The notes: a model not told the origin generated them from the letters alone. Positions 1 to 19,999 are shown, counted from the stretch's first letter. The stretch: DNA of 20,000 bases from an uncultured virus (IMG/VR IMGVR_UViG_3300032233_001922) (IMGVR_UViG_3300032233_001922), one strand, 5' to 3'. Translations and numbers: made by a program.

Positions 1-2089
1 ATTTTTCAGAAAAACCTATTTTTTCCAAACCTTGATACGTTACTAAAGTAATAGTATATTCTGGAATTTCTTTATTTTCTACGCTTCTGTTAGTTCCTAA
101 ATTGAACCAATCATTTAATTTGTATTTAGAACCAGTTAAAGCACCATTGACAAAATGTGAATCCTTGAAAGCAACTGTATTTCGTTCAGCACCGTTAGTC
201 CAATAACCGAACATTTCGTAAATCCAGTTTTTATAAACTTGTTTAGGTACGGCAATTAACGGTCTTTTTATTGACCCTTGTTTTAGCAACATTGCTAAGT
301 TATGAATAGCAGTCAATGTTTTACCAAAACCAACATCATAAGCAAGGCATCCAGAATTGTTAATATTTAAAAACGCTAAACCGTTTCTTTGAACTGGTTT
401 TAATCTAAAATTATCTAAATTAAAAATCTTATTGTTAGCTTCAAAACCTACTGGAACTTTACTTAAATCGTAAGTAACAAAATTGTTGAATGATTTATTG
501 AAAATTAAATTTAAACCCATTAAATCGGCTCTTGTCAATGCAGTAGCCAAAAATTCAGAATAATATTTATCGCCTTCAATTTTAGCTAAAATACGTCTTT
601 CGTCTTTTTCTTTTTCTTGGTCTTTTTTATTTTTTTCTTTTGATGCTTCAGACAAAAATACATTTCCATTTCTGAAATATAAGTTTTTAATGTCATCTAC
701 TGTGGTTTTGTCAAGCATATTGTTATTCACATTATAGCCAAACCAAATTTCGTATGCTTCAAATAAACTTACAGATTTTTTACCATAATCTTTACCATAA
801 TCAACTTGTTTTTTTCGTCTATTATTGCGGTCATAATCGTCATAATGTCTTTGAATAGAAACACCACTATCTACATCTAAATCAACAATCATAAATGAAT
901 GTGATAAATCGTTTTCTTTAGACAAATATGGTCGTTCAGAAACAATAGTATTTCCAAAGTCAAAATTATATTTAGTTTTCAAAGCGTTATCAATTAAAGA
1001 TTCTTGCCATTGAGCAACCTCAATACCAAATTTTTCAATTAACAAATTTTTGTAACCACCTTCAAATTTATCAGTTTCACGGTTATATTTACCAACAAAT
1101 TTTTCTTTAATTTCAAAAATATCCCCAAAAACATACATATAAATAGGCACATAATCATCCCCATCGTAACATAATCCTTTTTGTTTCACAAGGTTTACAA
1201 GTTCCGCTTCATCAACAGTAGCAAATGAATCTACCTCTTTAAAATTTCTCTCACTTGCATAATACAATTCTTTGTTTTCATTTTTGATTACCCAAAAAAC
1301 CTCATTATCATATTCGTTTTTAAATTTTGTTTTAACACCTAAAAGCGTTCCAGTAGGCACGTTCTTAATGTCTTGAAATTGTTGATTTTTTAAATAAAAA
1401 CTTTGTGTAGCATAAGCTAATCTACCTCTGTTAGTTTTAGAAGGCAAAAACCATTTTTCCCAACCAAACATCGGAGAACCAAATTTCTGTTTATAGTAAA
1501 CGTACCCTTTAATTTCTGGAGTAGTTATCGTTGGACTATAAATTTTTAAACTTTCCTCAATTGTCAATATTTCTGCAACATCGCTTTTCGGCTCTTTTTC
1601 AAAATTTAAAATTTTATTTGATATTGCTACTTCTTTATTAGTCATATTTTCTATTCTTTTTTCTTTCCTAACAGTTTCTTTTACGGTTTCTTTTACGGTT
1701 TCTTTTACGGTTTCTTTTTGCGTTGGCGATTCTTTTTCACTTGAAGCACCAACAACTTTTTGAATTTCGTAAGGTATAATAGAATTAATATCATTTATGT
1801 TACCAACTGTTATAACTGGATTAATAAACCCACTACCTTGTTTCTCTTTACTTAAAATTTTGTTGTTTTCAGTATAGAACCACGCACTAAACAATGACTT
1901 ATCATAATCTGTATCTACTTGCCCCTTAGTTTCAGTCAAATATTTGTCAAATAGTTGCTCAAATTCATCTTTTAAATTATCGGGTATAAAACCATAAGAT
2001 AAACCTAAATTTTCTGGGGTTTCTTCTCCCTTATATTTTCTTAACAATTCGTAAATTGCTTTATTTCTCGCTATTGCTTTATTATTCAT
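1..2089 (-). CDS. SNF2/SF2-type helicase, DarB/polyvalent-protein-like (5' part; runs off the window)
   Basis: Not in the ORF track because it is open at the edge. ATG at 2089 (MNNKAIARNKAIYELL...) overlaps the stop of the 70-aa ORF. Manual translation near 200-410 gives LKPVQRNGLAFLNINNSGCLAYDVGFGKTLTAI...RPLIAVPKQVYKNW, i.e. Q motif, motif I (DVGxGKT) and motif Ia. Confidence 0.85.
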   Translation of the reverse strand, partial: MNNKAIARNKAIYELLRKYKGEETPENLGLSYGFIPDNLKDEFEQLFDKYLTETKGQVDTDYDKSLFSAWFYTENNKILSKEKQGSGFINPVITVGNINDINSIIPYEIQKVVGASSEKESPTQKETVKETVKETVKETVRKEKRIENMTNKEVAISNKILNFEKEPKSDVAEILTIEESLKIYSPTITTPEIKGYVYYKQKFGSPMFGWEKWFLPSKTNRGRLAYATQSFYLKNQQFQDIKNVPTGTLLGVKTKFKNEYDNEVFWVIKNENKELYYASERNFKEVDSFATVDEAELVNLVKQKGLCYDGDDYVPIYMYVFGDIFEIKEKFVGKYNRETDKFEGGYKNLLIEKFGIEVAQWQESLIDNALKTKYNFDFGNTIVSERPYLSKENDLSHSFMIVDLDVDSGVSIQRHYDDYDRNNRRKKQVDYGKDYGKKSVSLFEAYEIWFGYNVNNNMLDKTTVDDIKNLYFRNGNVFLSEASKEKNKKDQEKEKDERRILAKIEGDKYYSEFLATALTRADLMGLNLIFNKSFNNFVTYDLSKVPVGFEANNKIFNLDNFRLKPVQRNGLAFLNINNSGCLAYDVGFGKTLTAIHNLAMLLKQGSIKRPLIAVPKQVYKNWIYEMFGYWTNGAERNTVAFKDSHFVNGALTGSKYKLNDWFNLGTNRSVENKEIPEYTITLVTYQGLEKIGFSEK
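1671..1718 (-). repeat. 4 x 12-bp tandem repeat encoding (KETV)4 in the helicase ORF
   Basis: acagtttctttt followed by three copies of acggtttctttt. Confidence 0.9.
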
Positions 2090-2294
2090 TCTGAAACCCT
2101 TTAAGTGTTACTTCTACATCTGCAAGTACATTGGCAAAATTCCAACTTGGAAATTGCTCTAATCTATTGTAAATCATATTTACAACCAATTCCCTACCAT
2201 CTTTAAACTTTAGTTTATCAGATATTCGGTTGTATTGTTCGGAATCAAGATTATCTAATACCTTATTGATATTGTCTTTTATTTTTGCGTTCAT
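2082..2294 (-). CDS. hypothetical protein (70 aa)
   Basis: ORF abuts the upstream gene and overlaps the helicase start, suggesting translational coupling. Confidence 0.75.
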   Translation of the reverse strand: MNAKIKDNINKVLDNLDSEQYNRISDKLKFKDGRELVVNMIYNRLEQFPSWNFANVLADVEVTLKGFQNE

Positions 2295-2295
2295 T

Positions 2296-5022
2296 TTACT
2301 TTTTTCTTAAAATTAATATATCAGTTCCAATTTGTGTTTTTTCAAAAATATTAGAAGGCAACCTATAAGCATCTACCAACTCGGCAATTTCAAATATTTG
2401 TTTTTTAATTTCGTTATACGCTATACCGTTTCTCATAAATGAACTTGGAATTAAATAAACTCCTAAACCGCCCTTTTTAAGCAAATGTAACGACTGCAAA
2501 ATAAAAAAGTGTTCTACTTGACCTTTAAAACTAAAATAGCTTGAATATAAGCCAGAAAACTTACCGTAAGGAGGGTTTGCTACAACTAAATCAAAAGGTG
2601 CGTTCTTTAACCACGTTTCAGTTCCTTTTCTATTAAGTAATGTATTAAATCGAGGTTCTTTTAAAAATGCTTTTTCAAAATTGAAGTTATGCAACTCGGC
2701 ATTTGGAAATTCTCTTTCAAGTATTTTAAAATTATCTTTACTAATCTCAAAAGCAGTAATATTAGCATCTTTTAAATTTTTAATTAATCTACCGCTTCCC
2801 GTTGCTGGTTCTAAAACATTTCCACCTTTAAATCCATAATGTTGTGCTAAAGCTAACATTTTATCAGCAACTATTTGAGGTGTGAAAAATTCGTATAACT
2901 TACCTTTGCCTTGCTTACTACCTTCGGATTCAAAAGACTTTTCTTTTTTAGAACCTAAATTATCTTTTTTCGGTTCGTCTTTGATTTCATTTTCAAGCGC
3001 TAACCTACCATTTTTTATTTCTTCAAGAAATTTTACTCCCGACATTGGTTGAGTTTTCATTATTCCTTTATCGTCTGAAATAAAAAGATTTACAAAATAA
3101 CCTCTACGCTTGTCAAATTCTAATTTTACTCTTGCTTTTAAATTTAAGTTACCTATTTTGTAATCTAAAATTTTACCATCAAAATCTTTAATTTCAGTAA
3201 TAGGACAAAGTGAGTAATGTTCCATTTCTTTTATTGGAAGCGGTTTTGAATAAGTTACAACACCATATTGATAATTTTGTTGAGTAAACCTCAAAAAGTT
3301 ATCTTTTGGGTATGTTCCAATATCAAACGGTCTAACTGTTAAAACATATTCGTATTCATTGTCAATCGCACCACCATCGGCATATATACCACTATAGCCA
3401 CCTACTGCACCATCTACTTCAACATCAAGTAAATCATTGTAATTGTTCAAATCCCTTGAAGGACTGTTACCGCTTTTGGCATCTTTAACTAAACTTTCAG
3501 TTTTCCCACCATTAGCCATTTTTTCAAAATTATAGTTTTTGTAATTTCTGTCTTTAAAGTTTTTTGATTTGAATATTTTTGAATCTCTATTATCCGAATC
3601 CTCTGTAATTTCAGCGTAATATTCTATATGGTTTGGCGTTTCAATAGTAAAATTATAAACTTCAAATCCGTTTTTTGTTTCTCCTTTAAAAGTTCCAGTA
3701 GTCCACCTATTAGTATTATTCCATCTTGCATCAACTTTACTCCCTATTTTTGGTAAATTTTGTTTAACTTCTCCACCTTTTTTGTAAATACCTTTTTTTT
3801 CTGGATATAATTCATAATATCTTTTTTCAGTACCTATCCATAAAGGAATTTTTGAATTTTCTATTTCATTGTTTTCAATGTAATTGTGAACATCTTTTTC
3901 ATTGTGAAAAACTTTATCTACATTTTCAATAAAAATATTATTTCTATTTTCGGAAGTCGTATAAACGCTCAATCCTAAATAAGTGTGGTATCTATTATTT
4001 TCATTATGATTAGATTCTCTAACATTAGAAACTCTATCATATAATTGTAAATCTTTTTTGGTTAAATCTGAAATATTATCTAAACTTCCACCTTTTTTCA
4101 ACCCAGCTTTTTTAAGTAAAGTATAATATTCTGGATTTTCAAATAAATGGTCTTTTACAATTTTCATTTGTTCACGTTTGCTTGAAGTGTGTTCGCTTTC
4201 CGCTTCCATACCTAAACGAACTTGTTTTTTTAATTCAGCTAAAGGCACTTGATGAATATCCGTAATATCCCTTAATGAAAAACTTTCGGCTAAATGACCG
4301 CCACTTTTATATTCTTCTTCTTCTTCATATCCGTAATCTCCAGCAGTATTTAATGCTCTAAAACTTTCCGAATCTATTGAATAACATTGCTCTTGACTTA
4401 ATTCATCAGTTACCTCTGTTAATTCACTTTGTAATTTATCTTGTTCAGATATTAATTTTGCTCTTTCTTTAAAAGACAAATCCCCATCGTATGAATAGAC
4501 ATCATTACCCAAATTCATTTTTTCTATTTCTAAAATCCTATTTGATAGTTTTTTAACTTTATTTATAATTCTTAATGGCACTTTAAGTAAATGACCTCCA
4601 CCATTCATTTGCATCATAATTTCGTGGTCTGTCATAGTCTTACCACCGTACTTGTAACTTGCTCCAGTATGTTTAATGCTTTTAGGCATTTCCCCACCAT
4701 CGGCAAAAGAAACACCGCCACCACGTTTATTTATTTCTGATAAAATTTCACGGTTCGTGAGCATCTTGCCTTCAAACTCTCTTTTTGTAGTATCGCTTAC
4801 CGCTGGGGCAGTAATAACAACTTCTCCACCTTGCATCTCAAGTGGTTGCCCAGTTGATTTATTAACTGCTTTAATACCGCCTTCTGCGTGAGTTCTACCA
4901 ACTAAATAGCCAGACAAAGAACCCTTGTTGTGTATCATTGTTTGACCTTCTCTTTTACCAACAAGCACACCACCAGTCGGAGTTGCTTCTGCTTTATTTT
5001 CGGTTAAATTTTCTTTTCTCAT
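2296..5022 (-). CDS. Modular protein: N-terminal GxxHxxGG module, DUF5661-like region, DarA C-terminal-like domain, C-terminal N6-adenine DNA methyltransferase
   Basis: MTase motifs EFFTP, VLEPATGSG, VVANPPY, LKKGG (about 2296-2900). YVLTVRPFDIGTYPK...YGVVTYSKPL...YSL (about 3200-3356) resembles DarA_C. LGMEAESEHT...IVKDHLFENPEYYTLL (about 4100-4260) resembles DUF5661. Start moved to ATG 5022 because a promoter occupies 5043-5073. Confidence 0.85.
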   Translation of the reverse strand: MRKENLTENKAEATPTGGVLVGKREGQTMIHNKGSLSGYLVGRTHAEGGIKAVNKSTGQPLEMQGGEVVITAPAVSDTTKREFEGKMLTNREILSEINKRGGGVSFADGGEMPKSIKHTGASYKYGGKTMTDHEIMMQMNGGGHLLKVPLRIINKVKKLSNRILEIEKMNLGNDVYSYDGDLSFKERAKLISEQDKLQSELTEVTDELSQEQCYSIDSESFRALNTAGDYGYEEEEEYKSGGHLAESFSLRDITDIHQVPLAELKKQVRLGMEAESEHTSSKREQMKIVKDHLFENPEYYTLLKKAGLKKGGSLDNISDLTKKDLQLYDRVSNVRESNHNENNRYHTYLGLSVYTTSENRNNIFIENVDKVFHNEKDVHNYIENNEIENSKIPLWIGTEKRYYELYPEKKGIYKKGGEVKQNLPKIGSKVDARWNNTNRWTTGTFKGETKNGFEVYNFTIETPNHIEYYAEITEDSDNRDSKIFKSKNFKDRNYKNYNFEKMANGGKTESLVKDAKSGNSPSRDLNNYNDLLDVEVDGAVGGYSGIYADGGAIDNEYEYVLTVRPFDIGTYPKDNFLRFTQQNYQYGVVTYSKPLPIKEMEHYSLCPITEIKDFDGKILDYKIGNLNLKARVKLEFDKRRGYFVNLFISDDKGIMKTQPMSGVKFLEEIKNGRLALENEIKDEPKKDNLGSKKEKSFESEGSKQGKGKLYEFFTPQIVADKMLALAQHYGFKGGNVLEPATGSGRLIKNLKDANITAFEISKDNFKILEREFPNAELHNFNFEKAFLKEPRFNTLLNRKGTETWLKNAPFDLVVANPPYGKFSGLYSSYFSFKGQVEHFFILQSLHLLKKGGLGVYLIPSSFMRNGIAYNEIKKQIFEIAELVDAYRLPSNIFEKTQIGTDILILRKK

Positions 5023-5042
5023 ATTTTTATCATAATAAAAAA

Positions 5043-5073
5043 CAAATATAATCAATGTAATTGAAACTACAAA
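5043..5073 (-). promoter_or_regulatory. Bacteroidota sigma-A promoter for the modular MTase/helicase operon
   Basis: Minus strand TTTG (5073-5070), 19-nt spacer, TATATTTG (5050-5043), matching TTTG-N19-21-TAnnTTTG. Confidence 0.75.
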
Positions 5074-5163
5074 AATATATTATTTAAAATAAAAATTTAA
5101 AAGTTCTTTTAGGTTTAAATAATAACTTGAACAACAGTTAGTTTTCTTTTAATTTTACTATCA

Positions 5164-5196
5164 TTTGTAATATTATTTATTTTTTAGTTACATTTG
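5164..5196 (+). promoter_or_regulatory. Bacteroidota sigma-A promoter for the plus-strand micro-gene
   Basis: TTTG (5164-5167), 21-nt spacer, TACATTTG (5189-5196). Confidence 0.7.
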
Positions 5197-5226
5197 TTCA
5201 ATTAATATTAATTAAAATTAGAAATT

Positions 5227-5340
5227 ATGTCAGATTTATTCAACATCAAAAGTCCAAATTATCTTGGTGGAGTTAATGTCCACAACACTTTGGCTTTGTT
5301 AGGGATAGGTTATTTAGTGTGGAAAGCATACAAAAAATAA
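5227..5340 (+). CDS. 37-aa small hydrophobic protein MSDLFNIKSPNYLGGVNVHNTLALLGIGYLVWKAYKK
   Basis: Manual translation; has its own promoter, an AT-rich leader and a terminator; hydrophobic segment with a basic C-terminus. Confidence 0.65.
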   Translation: MSDLFNIKSPNYLGGVNVHNTLALLGIGYLVWKAYKK

Positions 5341-5362
5341 TATCTCTTTAGAAAGGAAAAAG

Positions 5363-5393
5363 AAAAAGCCACTCAATCCGAGTGGCTTTTTTT
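5363..5393. terminator. Bidirectional intrinsic terminator
   Basis: aaaaaGCCACTC-aatcc-GAGTGGCttttttt hairpin flanked by A and T tracts, between convergent genes. Confidence 0.85.
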
Positions 5394-5562
5394 CGTTAAT
5401 GCTAAAAACTATACAATCCTTCTAAAAAAACATCAACTTCCTACTTACTATATACTTGGCTCGGCTATCCACGATTATACGCATTTTATCTGAAACTTCA
5501 ATAGATTGTTGACTGCCCACTTCTACCTACTCAAATAGTTTTTTTTTAAAAAAAATTAAGTA

Positions 5563-6282
5563 TTAAAACTTAAAATTCAATGATGTATTTAACGTAATAT
5601 TGTTGTAATCAATGATGTAAGAATCTCTAAAACTAGAATTTTGATTGTCGATATTAACTACTTGATTTTCAATTAAAAATGACCCTTTAAAATATTCTGC
5701 ATCAATACCTAAAAATATGTTCTTTGTCAATTTAATAGACAACCCAGCGGATGTAGTATATACAAATGAATTTGTTTTCGCTTCTTCTAGCGTGACAAAA
5801 AATCCAGATGTGCTTTGAAAATTTTCTTTAGGAGAAACAAAACCTCCGCTTCCACCATATATTTTAAGAGATAGATTTAATTTTTTTCTTTTATCAAGAT
5901 ATTTATTATATGAAATACCTAATAAATAAGATGAAAGTTCATATTTATTAGCACTTGAACTCCAGCTCCCTAACGAACTTGGCAATGAATTAGATATGTC
6001 TTTTGAATCAGAATCTAAGTTGTCATAAGGATTGTTTATTTTTGAGTATTTTAACTCTAACGCAATAAAATGACTTTGTTTAGTAGATATTTCTCTTGCA
6101 TACGAAAAAGAAATATTTGAACCATTTGAAGCGTAAACATCCCCTTCTGGATTGGATGTAAAACTGGGAACTGAAATTCCGTAAGATACAGAAATGTTGT
6201 TTTTTAAAGGTTTAATGTCTTGTGAGTTCACAAACATTGGAAAAACTAACAATAATACAAGTAACATTTTTTTTGTTTTCAT
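5563..6282 (-). CDS. Outer-membrane beta-barrel protein (moron-like)
   Basis: Sec signal peptide (MKTKKMLLVLLLVFPMFVNSQ), alternating amphipathic strands, C-terminal LNFKF; a TATCTTTG -7 box lies at 6323-6316. Confidence 0.75.
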   Translation of the reverse strand: MKTKKMLLVLLLVFPMFVNSQDIKPLKNNISVSYGISVPSFTSNPEGDVYASNGSNISFSYAREISTKQSHFIALELKYSKINNPYDNLDSDSKDISNSLPSSLGSWSSSANKYELSSYLLGISYNKYLDKRKKLNLSLKIYGGSGGFVSPKENFQSTSGFFVTLEEAKTNSFVYTTSAGLSIKLTKNIFLGIDAEYFKGSFLIENQVVNIDNQNSSFRDSYIIDYNNITLNTSLNFKF

Positions 6283-10297: not shown

Positions 10298-10368
10298 TTG
10301 GTTTACAAGGACTCGAACCTTGAAAGACTGCACCAAAAACAGTTGTGTTACCATTACACCATAAACCA
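10298..10368 (-). tRNA. trnQ: tRNA-Gln(UUG)
   Basis: Acceptor stem TGGTTTA/TAAACCA, D arm GTGTAATGGTAACAC, anticodon arm ACTGT-TTTTGGT-GCAGT, T arm CAAGG-TTCGAGT-CCTTG; CCA not encoded. Confidence 0.95.
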
Positions 10369-13349: not shown

Positions 13350-14216
13350 TTAGTTTATTTCTTTCAATGTTTTCTCAATCAATTTACGTAGGTCATCGTG
13401 TATGATATATTGCAAAGCGGTTTCAAGTACTAATTTTGAGGTAATTAACTTTGACTTTAAAGTTTCTACATTATCAGAAATAAGTTGTTCTTTTTTCTCA
13501 ATAGTCTTTATAATCGTAGCTTGTTTTTCAACTTGCTTAGTAACTGATTTAAAATCGGCATCGATTACTTTTAATTCGTTAATCTTTTTTTGATTTTCTA
13601 TCGCTTCTAATCTCAACTTATCGTTTTCCAAACGCAAGTTTTCTTTTTCATCTGCTAACGCTTTTTCCAACAATTCTTTTTCTTCTTTGGCTACCCTATC
13701 GGATTCCACTTTAGCGCCTAATGTTGTTTTAGCATAGTTTAAAACTCCGACAAATGCTTCTTCGGTAATTATATCTAACTGTAAAGTGTTTGGGTCTAAA
13801 ACCTCAATGTAAGGTAGCATTAATTCATAACGCTTTGCTTTGAGTTCCGCTTTTCTTTTTTGGTCTTGAATTTCAGCAAAACGCTCTTGAAGTTCTAAAT
13901 GTTTTTCTGCTGGTTCTACAAGCGCAGTTAAAGTTTTCGCAATACCATCAATTAACCTACCTTCATTCAAAGATTGTTCTTTTAAAGACTTTCTTGTTTT
14001 TTCAATTTCAATTCTTTTGGCTTTTAAAAGCAATCTACCTTCTCTCGCTTCTAACATTAAGTCTTTTTGACTTTCGTCTGTTACAACTATTGCATTTGCT
14101 TTTTCGTTCCACTCGGTAGCGATTGTAGTGAACTCGTTAAATTTTTCAATAATGTAATCTGATTTTGATTTTTCAATCAATGAATTTTCTGCTAATTTTG
14201 TTATTTCTTGGTTCAT
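13350..14216 (-). CDS. coiled-coil phage protein
   Basis: 288-aa helical E/K-rich ORF (AREGRLLLKAKRIEIEKTRKSLKEQSL...IDGIAK...VEPAEKHL). Confidence 0.7.
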   Translation of the reverse strand: MNQEITKLAENSLIEKSKSDYIIEKFNEFTTIATEWNEKANAIVVTDESQKDLMLEAREGRLLLKAKRIEIEKTRKSLKEQSLNEGRLIDGIAKTLTALVEPAEKHLELQERFAEIQDQKRKAELKAKRYELMLPYIEVLDPNTLQLDIITEEAFVGVLNYAKTTLGAKVESDRVAKEEKELLEKALADEKENLRLENDKLRLEAIENQKKINELKVIDADFKSVTKQVEKQATIIKTIEKKEQLISDNVETLKSKLITSKLVLETALQYIIHDDLRKLIEKTLKEIN

Positions 14217-14244: not shown

Positions 14245-14427
14245 TTAAAACGGACAATCCGATTTTTTAGGTTTTAATATTAATTGTTGGTACTCACGTT
14301 TAATTTTTTCTTGTATCGCTTCACGAATGAACTTACCCACATCAACATTTAAAGACTTCATTTTTTGAAGCGTATTTAATTGCGTTTCTGAAATCCGTAT
14401 CACTTTGGTTTTAGTAAGTAGTTTCAT
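14245..14427 (-). CDS. putative ribbon-helix-helix (CopG/Arc-like) DNA-binding protein
   Basis: TKVIRISETQLNTL...VDVGKFIREAIQEKI, a beta-strand/helix/helix pattern. Confidence 0.6.
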   Translation of the reverse strand: MKLLTKTKVIRISETQLNTLQKMKSLNVDVGKFIREAIQEKIKREYQQLILKPKKSDCPF

Positions 14428-14460
14428 AATTGCAATACATTTATAGCGGTTAGCAAGTAG

Positions 14461-15075
14461 TTACAAGCAAGCTGCAAACATCCCGACCTGATTAACCTGA
14501 TTTGCGTTATAACTGCCATTTGCACAATTCAGAATATGTAATCCTAATTCTGAATTAACAGCGTTTCTATCTTCTAATTTCTTTGAATGAGCGTGGTTTT
14601 TTTTACCTACATATTGCTTCATCATTGTTCCTACTTCATCCTTTGGCAATTCTATTTTAGGAATTTTAAAATTTGACCATAAATAATGCCTCCCAACTTC
14701 TGCCGTTGGTGGTATAAAATATTCGTAATAACTAACTACATTTTCAACACAAAACTTTCCTTTAAAGAATGTTTTTAAGAATATTATTTCTTGCCATAAT
14801 TCCATTTTAGGATAACGGCTTTCAGTAATATAATTTATAAAATAGTTTGCTCTGCTATGCGTTTGGCAAGGTGGCGAAGTCCAGATAAAATCAAACTCTG
14901 AATAATGGTCTAATAAATATTTGTGAGCATCAGCAACCACAACATTATCATTCGGAAACAAAGCTTTGTATTTTTCAGCAATTTTAGCATCAAACTCAAC
15001 CGCTGTAATTTCGTGGTCGTTGCCCCATAATTTACGGTTTCCACCAATCCCACAATATAAATTTAGTATTTTCAT
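14461..15075 (-). CDS. C5-cytosine DNA methyltransferase (cassette 1)
   Basis: ILNLYCGIGG (motif I), WTSPPCQ (IV), VENV (VI). Confidence 0.85.
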   Translation of the reverse strand: MKILNLYCGIGGNRKLWGNDHEITAVEFDAKIAEKYKALFPNDNVVVADAHKYLLDHYSEFDFIWTSPPCQTHSRANYFINYITESRYPKMELWQEIIFLKTFFKGKFCVENVVSYYEYFIPPTAEVGRHYLWSNFKIPKIELPKDEVGTMMKQYVGKKNHAHSKKLEDRNAVNSELGLHILNCANGSYNANQVNQVGMFAACL

Positions 15076-15105
15076 AAGTCCATTTTGTTTAAATTAAAAG
15101 CCTGC

Positions 15106-15194
15106 TTGTAACAAGCGTTTGGAGCAAGTTGCAGAAACACTTTCTTTCTATTCAAGCTCTCGGTGGCAACCTGCACCAAGCGCAAGCGTTAGCA
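15106..15194 (+). repeat. attC-like site 1
   Basis: TTGTAAC-aa-GCGTTTGGAGCAAGTTGC...GCAACCTGCACCAAGCGC-aagc-GTTAGCA. Confidence 0.8.
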
Positions 15195-15200
15195 GTAATA

Positions 15201-16022
15201 CTACATTCCATCTCCGAATAGAGTTTTCTGCGTTAAATCTTTTTCTTTTCTTTTTTCTTCCCACGCTTTTTTAATACGTTCTTCAATAATATTACAGTAT
15301 TCATTTGATATTTCACTTCCTATCCAGTTGCGGTTATTTAAAATACTCATTTTTGCTACCGTTCCACTTCCCATAAAGCAATCATAAATTAAATCATTTT
15401 CATTGCTCCAACTTATTATGTGGTCATTTGCTAATTGTTCAGGAAATTGTGCAGGATGCCCTTTTGTTCCTGCGTTTGTAGGTATTTCCCAAACATTACC
15501 TTTTTGTTTATACTCCTTTACAGCATCATTTTTATGACCTTCTGTTGGTGTGTTTTGTGAGTTTGTTTGGTAAAATGTTCTTCCATTGGTTTTATTTCCT
15601 TTGGTTTTGCACTCTACCATTATTGGATTAAATGTGTTTGGTTTACCTTTACTAAAAACAAACATATACTCAAACTCTTGCTCATATCTGTTATGAGTTA
15701 ATGGTATGTAATTTATTTTCCTATACATCATTGTATCGTGCAAATTAAAACCAATCTCTTTGAAGTAAAGTGCTTGTTTAAAACTCGTTCCACTTTCAGT
15801 TCCTTTTACTGTTGCATCGCCTACAATCCAAATAACTACACCACCTTGTTTTGTAATTCTATACAATTCCTTTGCTATATCTTCAAAAGGAAAAGAATAT
15901 CCATTATAAGTTCGTAATCCATCATAAGGCGGAGAAGTTACCGTTAAATCCACAAAGCAATCAGGCATATTTGCCATTGTTTCTAAATTGATTTCATTGT
16001 AATTTTTATTTATCTCAATCAT
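15201..16022 (-). CDS. N4-cytosine/N6-adenine DNA methyltransferase, beta class (cassette 2)
   Basis: VDLTVTSPPY near the N-terminus; HPAQFP and IYDCFMGSGT near the C-terminus. Confidence 0.9.
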   Translation of the reverse strand: MIEINKNYNEINLETMANMPDCFVDLTVTSPPYDGLRTYNGYSFPFEDIAKELYRITKQGGVVIWIVGDATVKGTESGTSFKQALYFKEIGFNLHDTMMYRKINYIPLTHNRYEQEFEYMFVFSKGKPNTFNPIMVECKTKGNKTNGRTFYQTNSQNTPTEGHKNDAVKEYKQKGNVWEIPTNAGTKGHPAQFPEQLANDHIISWSNENDLIYDCFMGSGTVAKMSILNNRNWIGSEISNEYCNIIEERIKKAWEEKRKEKDLTQKTLFGDGM

Positions 16023-16034
16023 ATTTTTAATTTT

Positions 16035-16175
16035 TCAAATTAATATTTGCCATCGCTCAAAAAAGAAAAGAAAAAGGTTCAGTTCTCCGAATGAGCATTT
16101 GTGGTTAATTACCGTACTACTGCTAACACGTGCTATAAGCAAGTTTGCCAATAACGTTTGTGCTAAATTTGACAT
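16035..16175 (-). CDS. leader ORF starting in the loop of attC-like site 2
   Basis: ATG at 16175 gives MSNLAQTLLANLLIARVSSST...; it ends 12 nt before the MTase start. Confidence 0.35.
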   Translation of the reverse strand: MSNLAQTLLANLLIARVSSSTVINHKCSFGELNLFLFFFERWQILI

Positions 16176-16215
16176 TTCTGCAAGGCAAACCTGCTCATAG
16201 CACCATCCGTTACTG
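16121..16215 (+). repeat. attC-like site 2
   Basis: TGCTAAC-ac-GTGCTATAAGCAAGTTTGCC...GGCAAACCTGCTCATAGCAC-catcc-GTTACTG. Confidence 0.8.
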
Positions 16216-16221
16216 GCTATG

Positions 16222-16458
16222 TTACTCACGATAGTCATCATATATTTCGATAGAGCCATCGTTAATAATTACTCCTCCAAATTTATTTGAAAAAGAAATA
16301 AGTTCTTCCAAAGAATTAATTTCTATCTCTGGCTGTTTATTTGATTTTCTAAATTTTAAATAATCAGAATGTTCAAATTCAAATCCTATTTCTTGAAGTT
16401 TTAACCTATCTTCTTCATTTGGATAAAAATAACCTGTTGTTGATAATGTGAATTTCAT
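16222..16458 (-). CDS. hypothetical protein (cassette 3)
   Basis: 78-aa ORF filling the cassette. Confidence 0.75.
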   Translation of the reverse strand: MKFTLSTTGYFYPNEEDRLKLQEIGFEFEHSDYLKFRKSNKQPEIEINSLEELISFSNKFGGVIINDGSIEIYDDYRE

Positions 16459-16484
16459 TTTGTTTGTGGATTAAAAAACACAGC

Positions 16485-16615
16485 CAGTAACATACGCTAC
16501 ACAATAGTTGGGTTAATTGTTTAATTTAAAGTTTGTTTTGCACTTTTATAATCTGTCATTATCCGAAGTCTGGGTGTGTGCTTTTCCCAGCCATCGTGTA
16601 GCTTTTCCGTTAGTG
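16485..16615 (+). repeat. attC-like site 3
   Basis: CAGTAAC-atac-GCTACACAATAGTTGGG...CCCAGCCATCGTGTAGC-ttttcc-GTTAGTG. Confidence 0.8.
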
Positions 16616-17011
16616 GAAATTCGAGCGAACAATCTCACGACCTAATTTTATAATGAAATAATCTTCGTGTCCAATCGCTCCCCAATCAGTAAAACCCATT
16701 CCTATTTCAATTCCTTTACATTCTAACGTGACTTTAGGACTGTTTTTATTGTAGCCATTAGTAAACTCAACCCAATCGTATTTTTTAAAAACCGCTTCCC
16801 AATTTGATTGGTTATTTTCGTATTCAATTTCATTACATAATCTTTGAATCCAATATCTTTTGACTTCCCTATATTCTTCCGTTTTCTCCCCAGAAAGAAT
16901 CATATCGAACCATTGTTTTTTTAAAGTCAATTTCAATACCCGATTAGAACTGCCACTAACACTTGCTAAACAAGATTCGGGTATTGGTGTATTATTTAAG
17001 GTCTGTTTCAT
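16610..17011 (-). CDS. ASCH/PUA-like domain protein (cassette 4)
   Basis: VLKLTLKKQWFDMILSGEKTEEYRE...VEFTNGY...YFIIKLG. Confidence 0.8.
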   Translation of the reverse strand: MKQTLNNTPIPESCLASVSGSSNRVLKLTLKKQWFDMILSGEKTEEYREVKRYWIQRLCNEIEYENNQSNWEAVFKKYDWVEFTNGYNKNSPKVTLECKGIEIGMGFTDWGAIGHEDYFIIKLGREIVRSNFH

Positions 17012-17089
17012 TTTTGTTATTATTAGTTATTAATCGAAAATCTGTTTTTTATTTTGTCCCGAACCTCGTTTAGCAAGGGAACGTTATGT
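16954..17089 (+). repeat. attC-like site 4
   Basis: CACTAAC-a-CTTGCTAAACAAGATTCGGG...CCCGAACCTCGTTTAGCAAG-ggaac-GTTATGT. Confidence 0.8.
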
Positions 17090-17094
17090 GTAAT

Positions 17095-17286
17095 TTATAT
17101 GATACAACCCATTCCTTTGTATTCTTGTTTTTTACAGTTTTTACATTCGTGTAAATTTTGAAAGCAAATCATTTCTCCATCTTTAGGAATTGGTGTATAT
17201 CTATCAATGTTTTTCCATTTGTGAAACCCTAAACTACACATAACATACGTTTGTAGCAAGAGGACTTTAGTCTTTAATTTAAACAT
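17095..17286 (-). CDS. small Cys/His putative zinc-binding protein (cassette 5)
   Basis: CSLGFHKW...HECKNCKK. Confidence 0.65.
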   Translation of the reverse strand: MFKLKTKVLLLQTYVMCSLGFHKWKNIDRYTPIPKDGEMICFQNLHECKNCKKQEYKGMGCII

Positions 17287-17368
17287 AATTTTGTACTTTT
17301 ATAATTAGTCATTAATTCAATAATCAGGATTTATTTTTTCCTCCTGCTACAAGCGTCCACCGTTAAAA
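17238..17368 (+). repeat. attC-like site 5
   Basis: ACATAAC-at-ACGTTTGTAGCAAGAGGA...TCCTCCTGCTACAAGCGT-ccacc-GTTAAAA. Confidence 0.8.
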
Positions 17369-17599
17369 CATATTCCCAGTAATTTGCATATTTGCCAACA
17401 TCGTATCTTCATTTTCATCTGACTTCATTTGTAATGAAATACTTTCGCCCCAACACACACAATTAACGTTTCCTTCTATATCTATTTCAAACCTTATAAA
17501 TCCAGCCGAAACTGGATTAAAGTTTTTAAAGTCTGAATGATTATTTAATCCAGAAAATACAATAATTTTTTTGTCGTTTGTTTTAATATACTTTGCCAT
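17363..17599 (-). CDS. hypothetical phage protein (78 aa)
   Basis: ORF whose TAA stop is the TTA of the last G|TTA core. Confidence 0.75.
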   Translation of the reverse strand: MAKYIKTNDKKIIVFSGLNNHSDFKNFNPVSAGFIRFEIDIEGNVNCVCWGESISLQMKSDENEDTMLANMQITGNMF

Positions 17600-18765: not shown

Positions 18766-18938
18766 AGATTTTTTATAATAAACATTAAATATACAATAGC
18801 AAAAACAAAAGAAGCAAAACAAACGAAAGAAAATATTAAAGCAAAACAAAAGCGCAAATTTTCGTTTCTTTTTTCTATGTTGTTTTCTGATTTATAAATT
18901 GTATCTTTTACAATTTTTCTGTAAGGTTTTTTCTTCAT
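18762..18938 (-). CDS. small protein with a C-terminal transmembrane segment
   Basis: Likely start MKKKPYRK at 18938, just after the upstream stop. Confidence 0.5.
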   Translation of the reverse strand: MKKKPYRKIVKDTIYKSENNIEKRNENLRFCFALIFSFVCFASFVFAIVYLMFIIKNL

Positions 18939-18942
18939 AATA

Positions 18943-19140
18943 TTATTTATTAAATTTTTCGTTGTAGTATTGTTCTGCATTTTCAATTCCAAAATAATGT
19001 AAAGAATTAATAATCTGTTGCTTTTCCATTTCTTTGGCGTGGTTAATTGAATTGATATACAAAATTTCATCTTCATCTTTTAAAACAGGCAATACTATTT
19101 TTAATTCTTGTACTAACCATTCTACTGCTGTCTGTGCCAT
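18943..19140 (-). CDS. hypothetical phage protein (QTAVEWL type)
   Basis: MAQTAVEWL...AKEMEKQQI...AEQYYNE, a pattern I recognise from Bacteroidota phage proteins. Confidence 0.75.
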   Translation of the reverse strand: MAQTAVEWLVQELKIVLPVLKDEDEILYINSINHAKEMEKQQIINSLHYFGIENAEQYYNEKFNK

Positions 19141-19870: not shown

Positions 19871-19912
19871 AGTATTCGTTGTTAAATTTCTTATTGTTAA
19901 ATTTTAATTATT

Positions 19913-19999
19913 TTATATAATATCTACAGATATTCCTACAATCTCTGTTTCTATCCAATTTTCTACTGAAGTATTACTGGTAAGTTGAAATTCTTGTTC
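19913..19999 (-). CDS. 3' end of a gene entering from the right edge
   Basis: Open frame EQEFQLTSNTSVENWIETEIVGISVDII ending in TAA at 19915-19913. Confidence 0.4.
   Translation of the reverse strand, partial: EQEFQLTSNTSVENWIETEIVGISVDII

Follow-up and report, generated by a model that had tools for sequence, protein, structure and literature searches.

A putative integron-like array of five gene cassettes in an uncultured virus and related arrays in phages and chromosomes of Bacteroidota

Results

Architecture of the array

The stretch of DNA studied here, a 20-kb stretch of the uncultured virus IMGVR_UViG_3300032233_001922 (analysed at its full length and referred to as the window), carries between positions 14428 and 17365 a series of small genes parted by imperfect hairpins, which we describe as a cassette array. 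Coordinates of sites and boxes are given on the plus strand, and sense refers to the gene-sense, i.e. the minus strand, which carries all genes between 10 and 20 kb. Six genes follow one another from 14461 to 17599, and the first five are spaced by long intergenic stretches that hold five sites bounded by TAAC and GTTA (15109–15191, 16124–16212, 16488–16612, 16957–17086 and 17241–17365; H1 to H5). Including their cores of 7 nucleotides (nt), the sites measure 89–136 nt. Five hairpins of this size and with these bounds had been reported in an earlier note made from the sequence alone, and all were confirmed in place. Read on the sense strand, each site consists of TAAC, a spacer of 4–6 nt, an imperfect stem of 17–20 bp, a loop of 33–76 nt, a second spacer of 1–4 nt and GTTA. 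The stems were recovered by a repeat search, which detected three of the sites, and by DNA folding. A scanner for the pattern TAAC, spacer, ungapped stem and GTTA found only these five sites in the window, corresponding to ten hits on both strands compared to a mean of 0.33 in 30 block shuffles. The nearest record, a contig of 59.6 kb (G001), gave one marginal hit.

Ten boxes of 14 nt lie at the ends of the five units, starting at 14460/15099, 15188/16114, 16209/16478, 16609/16947 and 17083/17231. The members of these inverted pairs agree at 13, 13, 13, 12 and 13 of 14 positions, in the same order, so that the claim of the earlier note that each cassette start is complementary to its own far end holds for all ten boxes as quoted there. 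The order of a unit on the sense strand is hairpin site, 5' box beginning with GTTA, gene and 3' box finishing in TAAC. In every box pair of the window (5/5) an A stands against a G at position 11, which gives a G·T wobble on the sense strand and an A·C mismatch on the other strand. This difference is not mentioned in the earlier note. The stems are biased in the same direction, and the sense strand forms the more stable DNA fold in four of the five sites.

The distal edge of the array is marked by a backbone gene of 78 amino acids (aa; 17363–17599), the stop codon of which supplies the TAA of the outermost core (sense strand TAA|C). This gene shows 81% nucleotide identity to its counterpart in the viral contigs L003 and L004, and it is here, from 17361 on, that a contig of the aquatic metagenome run X6 (see below) aligns to the window. 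Next in the sense direction are site H5, with a 5-nt spacer, an 18-bp stem, a long loop and a 2-nt spacer, and cassette gene 5 (17095–17241; boxes 17231–17244 and 17083–17096), which encodes a cysteine-rich protein of about 48 aa. Site H4 has a 20-bp stem and precedes cassette gene 4 (16610–16933; boxes 16947–16960 and 16609–16622), which encodes about 107 aa from a TTG start codon and belongs to phrog_625, a family with no function assigned. Site H3 has a 17-bp stem and a loop that is 80% identical to that of H5; it is followed by cassette gene 3 (16222–16458; boxes 16478–16491 and 16209–16222), coding for 78 aa with no function assigned. The remaining two sites are of a short type. H2, with a 20-bp stem including two G·T pairs on the sense strand, precedes cassette gene 2 (15201–16022; boxes 16114–16127 and 15188–15201), which codes for an N6/N4 DNA methyltransferase of 273 aa (PF01555, E = 6e-43; phrog_67). 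H1, with an 18-bp stem, precedes cassette gene 1 (14461–15075; boxes 15099–15112 and 14460–14473), which codes for a short C5 cytosine DNA methyltransferase-like protein of 204 aa (PF00145, E = 2e-7, N-terminal part only; phrog_363). Cassette 1 adjoins the platform end of the array. Here, an attI-like junction of 32 nt (14428–14459) leads from the terminal TAAC to the start codon of a 60-aa ribbon-helix-helix (RHH)-like gene (14245–14427; phrog_25647, E = 4e-32; weak match to DUF6290).

Within the loops of H4 and H5, ATG codons start reading frames (16934–17011 and 17242–17286) that continue across the 3' arm and the GTTA box and are in phase with the cassette gene. Similar loop reading frames were observed in the viral contig L009 (4812–5084 and 5545–5781), and the leader peptides are alike in the window and L009 (MKQT..PESCLASV). 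These frames may have arisen by chance in AT-rich DNA or may represent a true translation start that is carried by the site.

The 20 open reading frames (ORFs) of the window that were scanned against Pfam contain no recombinase, in agreement with the earlier note, and no HUH or Y1 transposase domain. A single-strand transposon of the IS200/IS605 type was rejected as an explanation, as there is no TnpA and the hairpins part the genes of an array instead of forming the ends of one element. It is also conceivable that the hairpins act at the RNA level by processing, stabilising or attenuating a polycistronic early transcript, and that their cassette-like appearance is a by-product. This would fit the intergenic position of the sites between co-directional genes and the fact that all non-Watson-Crick pairs favour the transcribed sense strand, where they are compatible with G·U pairing; the sites may even serve both uses. 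However, a search of the full-length window against Rfam (E ≤ 1) returned only a tRNA and two sub-threshold hits, all of them outside the array, and neither terminator-like (2 versus 1.7) nor promoter-like sequences (17 versus 16.8) are enriched between 14200 and 17700. Furthermore, a role in RNA would leave unexplained the fixed recombinase junction, the core-to-core exchange and the ORFs on either strand in bacterial arrays that are described below. We therefore regard it as highly improbable.

Covariation of the sites across viral loci

About 60 other viral loci with arrays of the same site family were examined. A pattern search with the loops of H3 and H5 revealed four other viral contigs with arrays of one to at least 14 sites, which show the identical design and follow the same rule at position 11. 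Pooling the window with 32 viral loci yielded 70 sites. For consecutive sites, the box that follows one hairpin was compared with the complement of the box that precedes the next, and the two were counted as a pair if at least 11 of 14 positions matched, which was the case for 33 of 44 consecutive site pairs compared to 1 of 70 random pairings. The G/A difference at position 11 was present in 29 of the 31 distinct box pairs of this set.

An alignment of the stems of 37 long sites revealed a 20-pair stem with 92.6% of positions paired, compared to 53.4% in shuffled sequences and 35–45% when the partner was slid. The 37 sites had been chosen by a scanner that requires a stem, which inflates the percentage of pairing and affects neither the covariation nor the fixed odd pairs. 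Eighteen of the 20 stem pairs vary on both sides. At pair 14, 35 of the 37 sites have G·U; pair 6 is always U-A, and at pair 5 the bases are left unpaired in 26 sites. Within the ungapped stems that the scanner defines, there are a fixed mismatch and G·T wobbles and no single-base bulges. Wobbles with G in the 5' arm and T in the 3' arm occur 127 times versus 9 in the opposite polarity, and the more stable strand is the sense strand in 57 sites and the antisense strand in 13. The two sides of the internal loop differ in length, with 4–7 nt at the 5' side (most often 5 nt, 48/71 sites) and 0–4 nt at the 3' side. Both the box helix and the hairpin helix have a G·T pair at a similar distance outward from this loop, an arrangement that may represent two half-sites for a recombinase dimer. 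The sequences before the first hairpin, i.e. the distal array ends, share no common motif in 19 loci.

In L009, a viral contig of 46 kb, two arrays diverge from a common point (376–3200 on the minus strand and 3534–5782 on the plus strand), and only one of them ends at a recombinase gene.

Recurrence of units and breakpoints at the cores

The window segment 17083–17365, comprising H5 and cassette gene 5, recurs in contig L010 (3950–4232) with 97.2% identity over 283 nt amid other neighbours, and the encoded protein is 100% identical over 48 aa. As the match ends at the two cores, it defines a unit as a hairpin together with the gene that follows on the sense strand. The earlier note had parsed the array in this way, assigning to each gene the hairpin located to its right on the plus strand. 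Other parts of the array recur separately. H2 alone is 94% identical in L032 across exactly 16124–16212, H3 is 84–94% identical to sites in L009, L011, L012 and L018, and H4 is 90% identical to a site in L009, the gene of which differs. A homologue of cassette gene 4 with 80% nucleotide identity is found in L020 as a cassette with a different hairpin and different boxes, and these boxes are again self-complementary (GTTATCAGCAGTTT with AAATTGCTGATAAC).

We also aligned contigs from four aquatic metagenome runs of four studies (X2, X3, X4 and X6) to the array, where parts left uncovered are not evidence of absence. The runs with array pieces are labelled lake, freshwater, aquatic or wastewater metagenomes. 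No breakpoint of similarity lies more than 1 nt away from a core. Contigs of X2, X3 and X6 start to match at 15187, the pieces being about 97–98% identical, and are preceded by unlike DNA in X2 and X6. One contig of X2 matches only 16124–16212 and has unlike DNA on either side. In X6, similarity breaks at 17241, where one match begins, and at 17361. Comparing relatives for variation at the G|TT cores, as the earlier note had proposed, revealed both the recurrence of units and breaks in similarity at TAAC/GTTA cores.

Some candidates for informative junctions were rejected. A 419-nt contig of X3 (record 5) contains a stretch similar to 16121–16159 that is joined via 48 other letters to 15187 (window 15187–15515). 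It was not accepted as a circle or tandem junction of cassette 2, as it has 7 nt of the box and an arm that is 82% alike; it could be another hairpin of the H2 subfamily or a tandem or circular form. The contig end of G001 (window 14546) lies inside gene 1 and not at a core, and is thus uninformative as a breakpoint. The relatives L003 and L004, which are 82–85% identical to the window, lack the whole array, and their similarity to the window ends at 17363. Their second breakpoint is located inside a 288-aa gene instead of at a core. This gene (13350–14216) adjoins the RHH gene and encodes a coiled-coil-like protein, of which only the C-terminus is kept in L003 and L004 by an ORF of 42 aa (L003 3286–3414, L004 2032–2160). 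A homologue of the 288-aa protein with 31% identity lies inside an array in L027.

A class of arrays that ends at an RHH gene

Homologues of the RHH gene were detected in 25 other viral contigs, the remaining genes of which are mostly unrelated to those of the window. In 23 of these 25 loci, the TAAC that ends the cassettes is located exactly 32 nt before the RHH start codon. The junction sequence is conserved, and the terminal boxes and cassettes differ between loci. Pairing between the terminal box and that of the last hairpin detected was observed at 16 of 25 loci. In L138, a homologue of cassette gene 1 (89% aa identity) is likewise the last cassette before the RHH gene. The earlier note had described an array with no integrase nearby, which is correct for the window, and had not included this conserved junction before the RHH gene, which constitutes the platform end. 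We read the 32-nt junction as the putative insertion point of the array, and the RHH protein may be its regulator or marker.

In the window, the TAAC of the last cassette is directly followed by 11 nt (TACTTGCTAAC; 14449–14459) that finish in a second TAAC, which is present at many, not all, junctions of the RHH type.

An AlphaFold model of the RHH protein (mean pLDDT 77) consists of an extended segment followed by two helices. The top rows of a Foldseek search list CopG, Arc and RHH antitoxins, all with E > 1 and none at E ≤ 0.001, and a sequence search against the PDB returned nothing below E = 0.2. The genes downstream of the RHH gene comprise no family that is common to more than 6 of 26 loci. 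No RHH homologues were found in five host genomes, a search that had no positive control.

An Xer-like recombinase adjoins related arrays in phages and bacterial chromosomes

In two of the first four contigs, a gene for a tyrosine recombinase of 266–276 aa starts just past the last cassette. A protein search with these two recombinases yielded 30 viral loci with relatives, and the array-linked enzymes measure 266–277 aa. Sites on the same strand were found upstream of the recombinase gene in 22 of the 30 loci and downstream in none. All 23 aligned loci (23/23) have a TAAC (21 loci) or CAAC (2 loci) about 52 nt before the recombinase start codon, followed by a conserved spacer. The last cassette of this class thus ends 51–52 nt before the gene. 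The junctions of the two classes, 52 and 32 nt long, have the motif CTATA(A)ATGTATT in common. None of the 25 RHH loci contains an Xer-like gene.

Sequence comparisons indicate that the array-linked recombinase is Xer-like. Among protein families, XerA_Arch gave the best match, with a score below the cut-off, and its best solved relatives are archaeal XerA proteins (4a8e and 5hxy), ahead of IntI4. Where IntI4 has 68 residues, the recombinase has 25, i.e. about 43 fewer, and therefore lacks the IntI-specific insertion. The IntI models TIGR02249 (116–153 bits versus a cut-off of 265) and NF011946 scored far below their cut-offs. The catalytic Arg, His-x-x-Arg and Tyr are conserved in all 16 aligned recombinases.

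A covariance model, which the earlier note had suggested for the five sites, was built for the site family (R1) and run on ten whole bacterial genomes. It matched 41 sites in Oceanihabitans sediminis, 15 in Maribacter, 7 in Tenacibaculum, 3 in Salegentibacter and 2 in Gillisia, that is, in all five Flavobacteriaceae (2–41 each), as well as 36 in Pelobium manganitolerans. No matches were obtained in Chitinophaga and in metagenome-assembled genomes of a Lactobacillus, a member of the Ectothiorhodospiraceae and a member of the Cytophagales, so that six of the ten genomes contain sites. In Oceanihabitans, 22 sites lie on the same strand within 29.5 kb. The gene of this genome that best matches the phage recombinase (E = 6e-77) is encoded on the opposite strand, at a distance of about 0.5 kb from the end of the array. 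In four of the five Flavobacteriaceae genomes, the best recombinase match is located 0.5–3.5 kb from sites. The host cores are YAAC/GTTR, and the own-box rule and the G/A difference at position 11 are as in the phages. The ORFs between host sites lie on either strand.

By definition, the window qualifies as a cluster of attC sites lacking an integrase (CALIN), with five attC-type sites in 2.3 kb and no recombinase. Such a cluster could be the remnant of a true integron, with attC sites that were made and served by a classical IntI. The cores fit the consensus RYYYAAC/GTTRRRY, both as TAAC/GTTA in the window and as YAAC/GTTR in the hosts, and the imperfect hairpins as well as the complementarity of each unit's ends are known from attC cassettes. 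CALINs have been reported in virulent phages, including Polaribacter phage P12002L with its two methylase genes, and IntI1 was reported to insert five of six phage attC candidates, P12002L_attC2 included, into attI1 (Qi et al. 2023, Front Microbiol, PMC9892861). In our reading of L016, P12002L_attC2 corresponds to the terminal TAAC junction in a small array that belongs to the family described here. On the other hand, P12002L_attC1, which shows the full family architecture (TAAC, 5-nt spacer, stem and GTTA), was the sole site that IntI1 did not recombine in that study, and the surveys with IntegronFinder report integrons to be almost absent from Bacteroidetes (Cury et al. 2016, Neron et al. 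2022). Together with the Xer-like nature of the gene that stands at a fixed distance from the array end and with its missing insertion, this makes an IntI-derived remnant quite improbable. The proposal of the earlier note that the array bears the signature of IntI was not supported. G001 likewise yielded no recombinase.

Other features of the window

An exonuclease gene of the window is 68% identical to that of Flavobacterium phages (46 of 62 matching records). In Flavobacterium phage FpV9, this gene is the only one in common with the window, and the scanner found no sites. Judging from this relationship and from the labels of the metagenome runs with array pieces, the host of the virus is presumably a freshwater member of the Bacteroidota.

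Upstream in coordinates of the array, all on the minus strand, a gene at 2296–5055 encodes a 919-aa protein with DUF5661, a DarA C-terminal domain (defence against restriction) and an N6 DNA methylase/Eco57I domain, which is followed by an SNF2-type helicase gene (2–2089). The two have the appearance of a large anti-restriction module. Several glycosyltransferase genes in a row between 5563 and 10134 (GT1, two GT2 and a hexapeptide transferase, with a weak match to the TET-associated glycosyltransferase family) may indicate that DNA or a surface structure is modified with sugars. A tRNA gene is located at 10298–10368 (minus strand; Rfam, 61.9 bits). At the other end, the first 87 nt of G001 match window 19878–19964 exactly in reverse complement, and G001 628–733 resembles window 18936–19041 (93%) in reverse orientation. 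The inverted match can be explained by a promoter region that is repeated in inverted orientation in the genome, or by an artefact of assembly at the contig end.

Discussion

We consider it likely that positions 14428–17365 of the window constitute a five-cassette array of an integron-like system that occurs in phages and chromosomes of Bacteroidota. The anatomy of the sites, their covariation, the modular recurrence of units and the genomic association of related arrays with a recombinase gene support a cassette array of integron-like design that is not a classical integron.

The complementarity of the two boxes suggests how such units could move. If a unit were circularised, its boxes would lengthen the hairpin, and the box helix, the asymmetric internal loop and a helix of 17–22 bp would form one long imperfect stem, each helix with a fixed G·T wobble. 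An Xer-like tyrosine recombinase might fold the single-stranded DNA and cut it at or next to TAA|C, so that units would be excised as circles and inserted at the junction of the proximal array end. In the phage studied here, which has no recombinase of its own, any turnover must make use of an enzyme supplied in trans, which might come from a co-infecting phage or from an array in the host chromosome. The earlier note had likewise proposed a supply in trans. This part appears plausible because related phages and chromosomes of Flavobacteriaceae encode a recombinase beside arrays with the same sites; the accompanying assumption that the enzyme is an IntI is not supported. The two DNA methylases among the cassettes plausibly serve anti-restriction, and the other cargo consists of three small genes with no function assigned.

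Several observations weigh against the view that the locus belongs to such a mobile system. With respect to the sites, the covariance model at E ≤ 0.01 recovers only two of the five in the window (H4 with 128 bits and H5 with 87 bits), missing H1–H3 with their shorter or shifted geometry, and none in P12002L. Eighty bacterial loci around more distant relatives of the recombinase contain no arrays and only eight isolated hits of the strict scanner in 776 kb, a scanner that under-reports outside phages, since it finds no sites in the Oceanihabitans array with its YAAC/GTTR cores. With respect to exchange, hairpins that are identical or nearly so are found with different boxes and genes, for which one crossover point per site does not account; exchange at both TAAC and GTTA or gene conversion would be needed. 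In L003 and L004, only one of the two breakpoints falls on a core, and this position is also that of a stop codon. The contigs compared revealed no product of recombination.

Furthermore, G001, rated 92% complete by CheckV, has no PF00589 match, leaving about 65 kb of phage without a recombinase. Of five whole contigs of the RHH class, three, including two rated 100% complete, lack a PF00589 match as well, and the other two encode distant integrases of 401–433 aa far from the array. As the window, G001 and the two complete contigs have no recombinase, the array could be inert in this phage. It may thus be a fossil of once-mobile units that nothing would move in this phage at present, or may have been imported as a whole by homologous recombination, for which the hairpins of the same subfamily, being 84–97% alike between phages, could provide the substrate. 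Yet all five sites and ten boxes are intact, and the wobble at position 11 is kept in every pair. RHH phages without a recombinase vary in their terminal cassette, with a junction that is base-exact in 23 of 25 loci, and this combination suggests repeated insertion at the junction. In addition, the nearly identical pieces from other lakes are cut at cores of 4 nt, which are too short for homologous exchange. We therefore think that a fossil array is unlikely.

A wider proposal is possible, and we put it forward tentatively. The family would be a second integron-like system of independent origin, based on an Xer-type recombinase without the IntI insertion, and chromosomes and virulent phages would draw on a shared pool of cassettes. 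Phages of the RHH class might then keep only a docking platform, consisting of the 32-nt junction and an RHH protein that marks or regulates it, and acquire cassettes such as anti-restriction methylases in trans during infection, by way of the machinery of the host or of a co-infecting phage.

Integrons are the textbook system of gene capture and are thought to be tied to one specialised clade of integrases and to be nearly absent from Bacteroidota. A look-alike system with another recombinase could here be followed through dozens of phage contigs and six of ten bacterial genomes. If our interpretation is correct, recombination of folded single-stranded DNA has evolved at least twice from Xer-like ancestors. 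It would also explain the base-pair-precise swapping of accessory genes, above all DNA methylases, in flavobacterial phages, and would make naturally covarying substrates with fixed wobbles available for mechanistic work. The class without a recombinase raises the question of how a virulent phage makes use of a cassette system in trans.

Among known systems, the promoter-early stem-loop (PeSL) cassettes of T4-type phages are similar in that stem-loops flank small accessory genes in a plastic region of a virulent phage, and these genes are shuffled between phages. The PeSLs themselves are nearly identical, promoter-containing repeats that act via homologous recombination, whereas the hairpins of the family described here vary and covary, show no enrichment of promoters and are exchanged at 4-nt cores. 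Integrative mobile elements exploiting Xer (IMEX), such as CTX-phi and TLC-phi, have no recombinase of their own and use the Xer proteins of the host, in the case of CTX-phi via folded single-stranded DNA. They integrate as a whole at the chromosomal dif site. The arrays differ in that single genes are stacked at a phage-borne junction; no dif-like site was seen and none was searched for.

The closest described case is the CALIN of P12002L, likewise a cluster of attC-like sites without a recombinase between DNA methylase genes in a flavobacterial phage, in which the gp35 cassette has self-complementary boxes (12/14). It differs from the window in that the array of the latter is larger (five units) and belongs to the class that ends at an RHH gene, and in that its sites were taken as substrates of IntI (Qi et al. 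2023, PMC9892861). The main text of that article contains the words Xer, Flavobacter and Bacteroid zero times, and the text searched mentions no Xer-like recombinase, 14-nt boxes or host arrays. In the portions of the literature searched, we found no description of an Xer-linked cassette system in phages or Flavobacteriia, and such descriptions could exist elsewhere. As far as we could find, these arrays with Xer-like recombinases are widespread in Bacteroidota and scarcely described.

The family resembles integrons, with their IntI, attI and attC, in many respects. Single-gene units are parted by imperfect hairpins with inverted YAAC/GTTR cores, the start of a unit is complementary to its own far core, and in related arrays one end carries a tyrosine recombinase gene and a conserved junction. 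Site subfamilies are shared within an array, as in the repeats of Vibrio, and chromosomal arrays can be as large as that of Oceanihabitans. The differences are equally distinct. There is no IntI, the defining feature of integrons, and the Xer-like recombinase takes its place. The box complementarity extends over 14 instead of 7 nt. In place of extrahelical bases, the sites appear to have an internal loop of 5 × 1–2 nt, a fixed mismatch and two fixed G·T wobbles. In phages, the strand that folds better also carries the cassette genes, opposite to the classical arrangement, and these genes run towards the recombinase. A second class of arrays ends at an RHH gene with no recombinase. The window can be placed in this family by the matches of the covariance model to H4 and H5, by the rule at position 11 in all of its box pairs, and by a junction identical in position to that of nearly all RHH loci (23/25).

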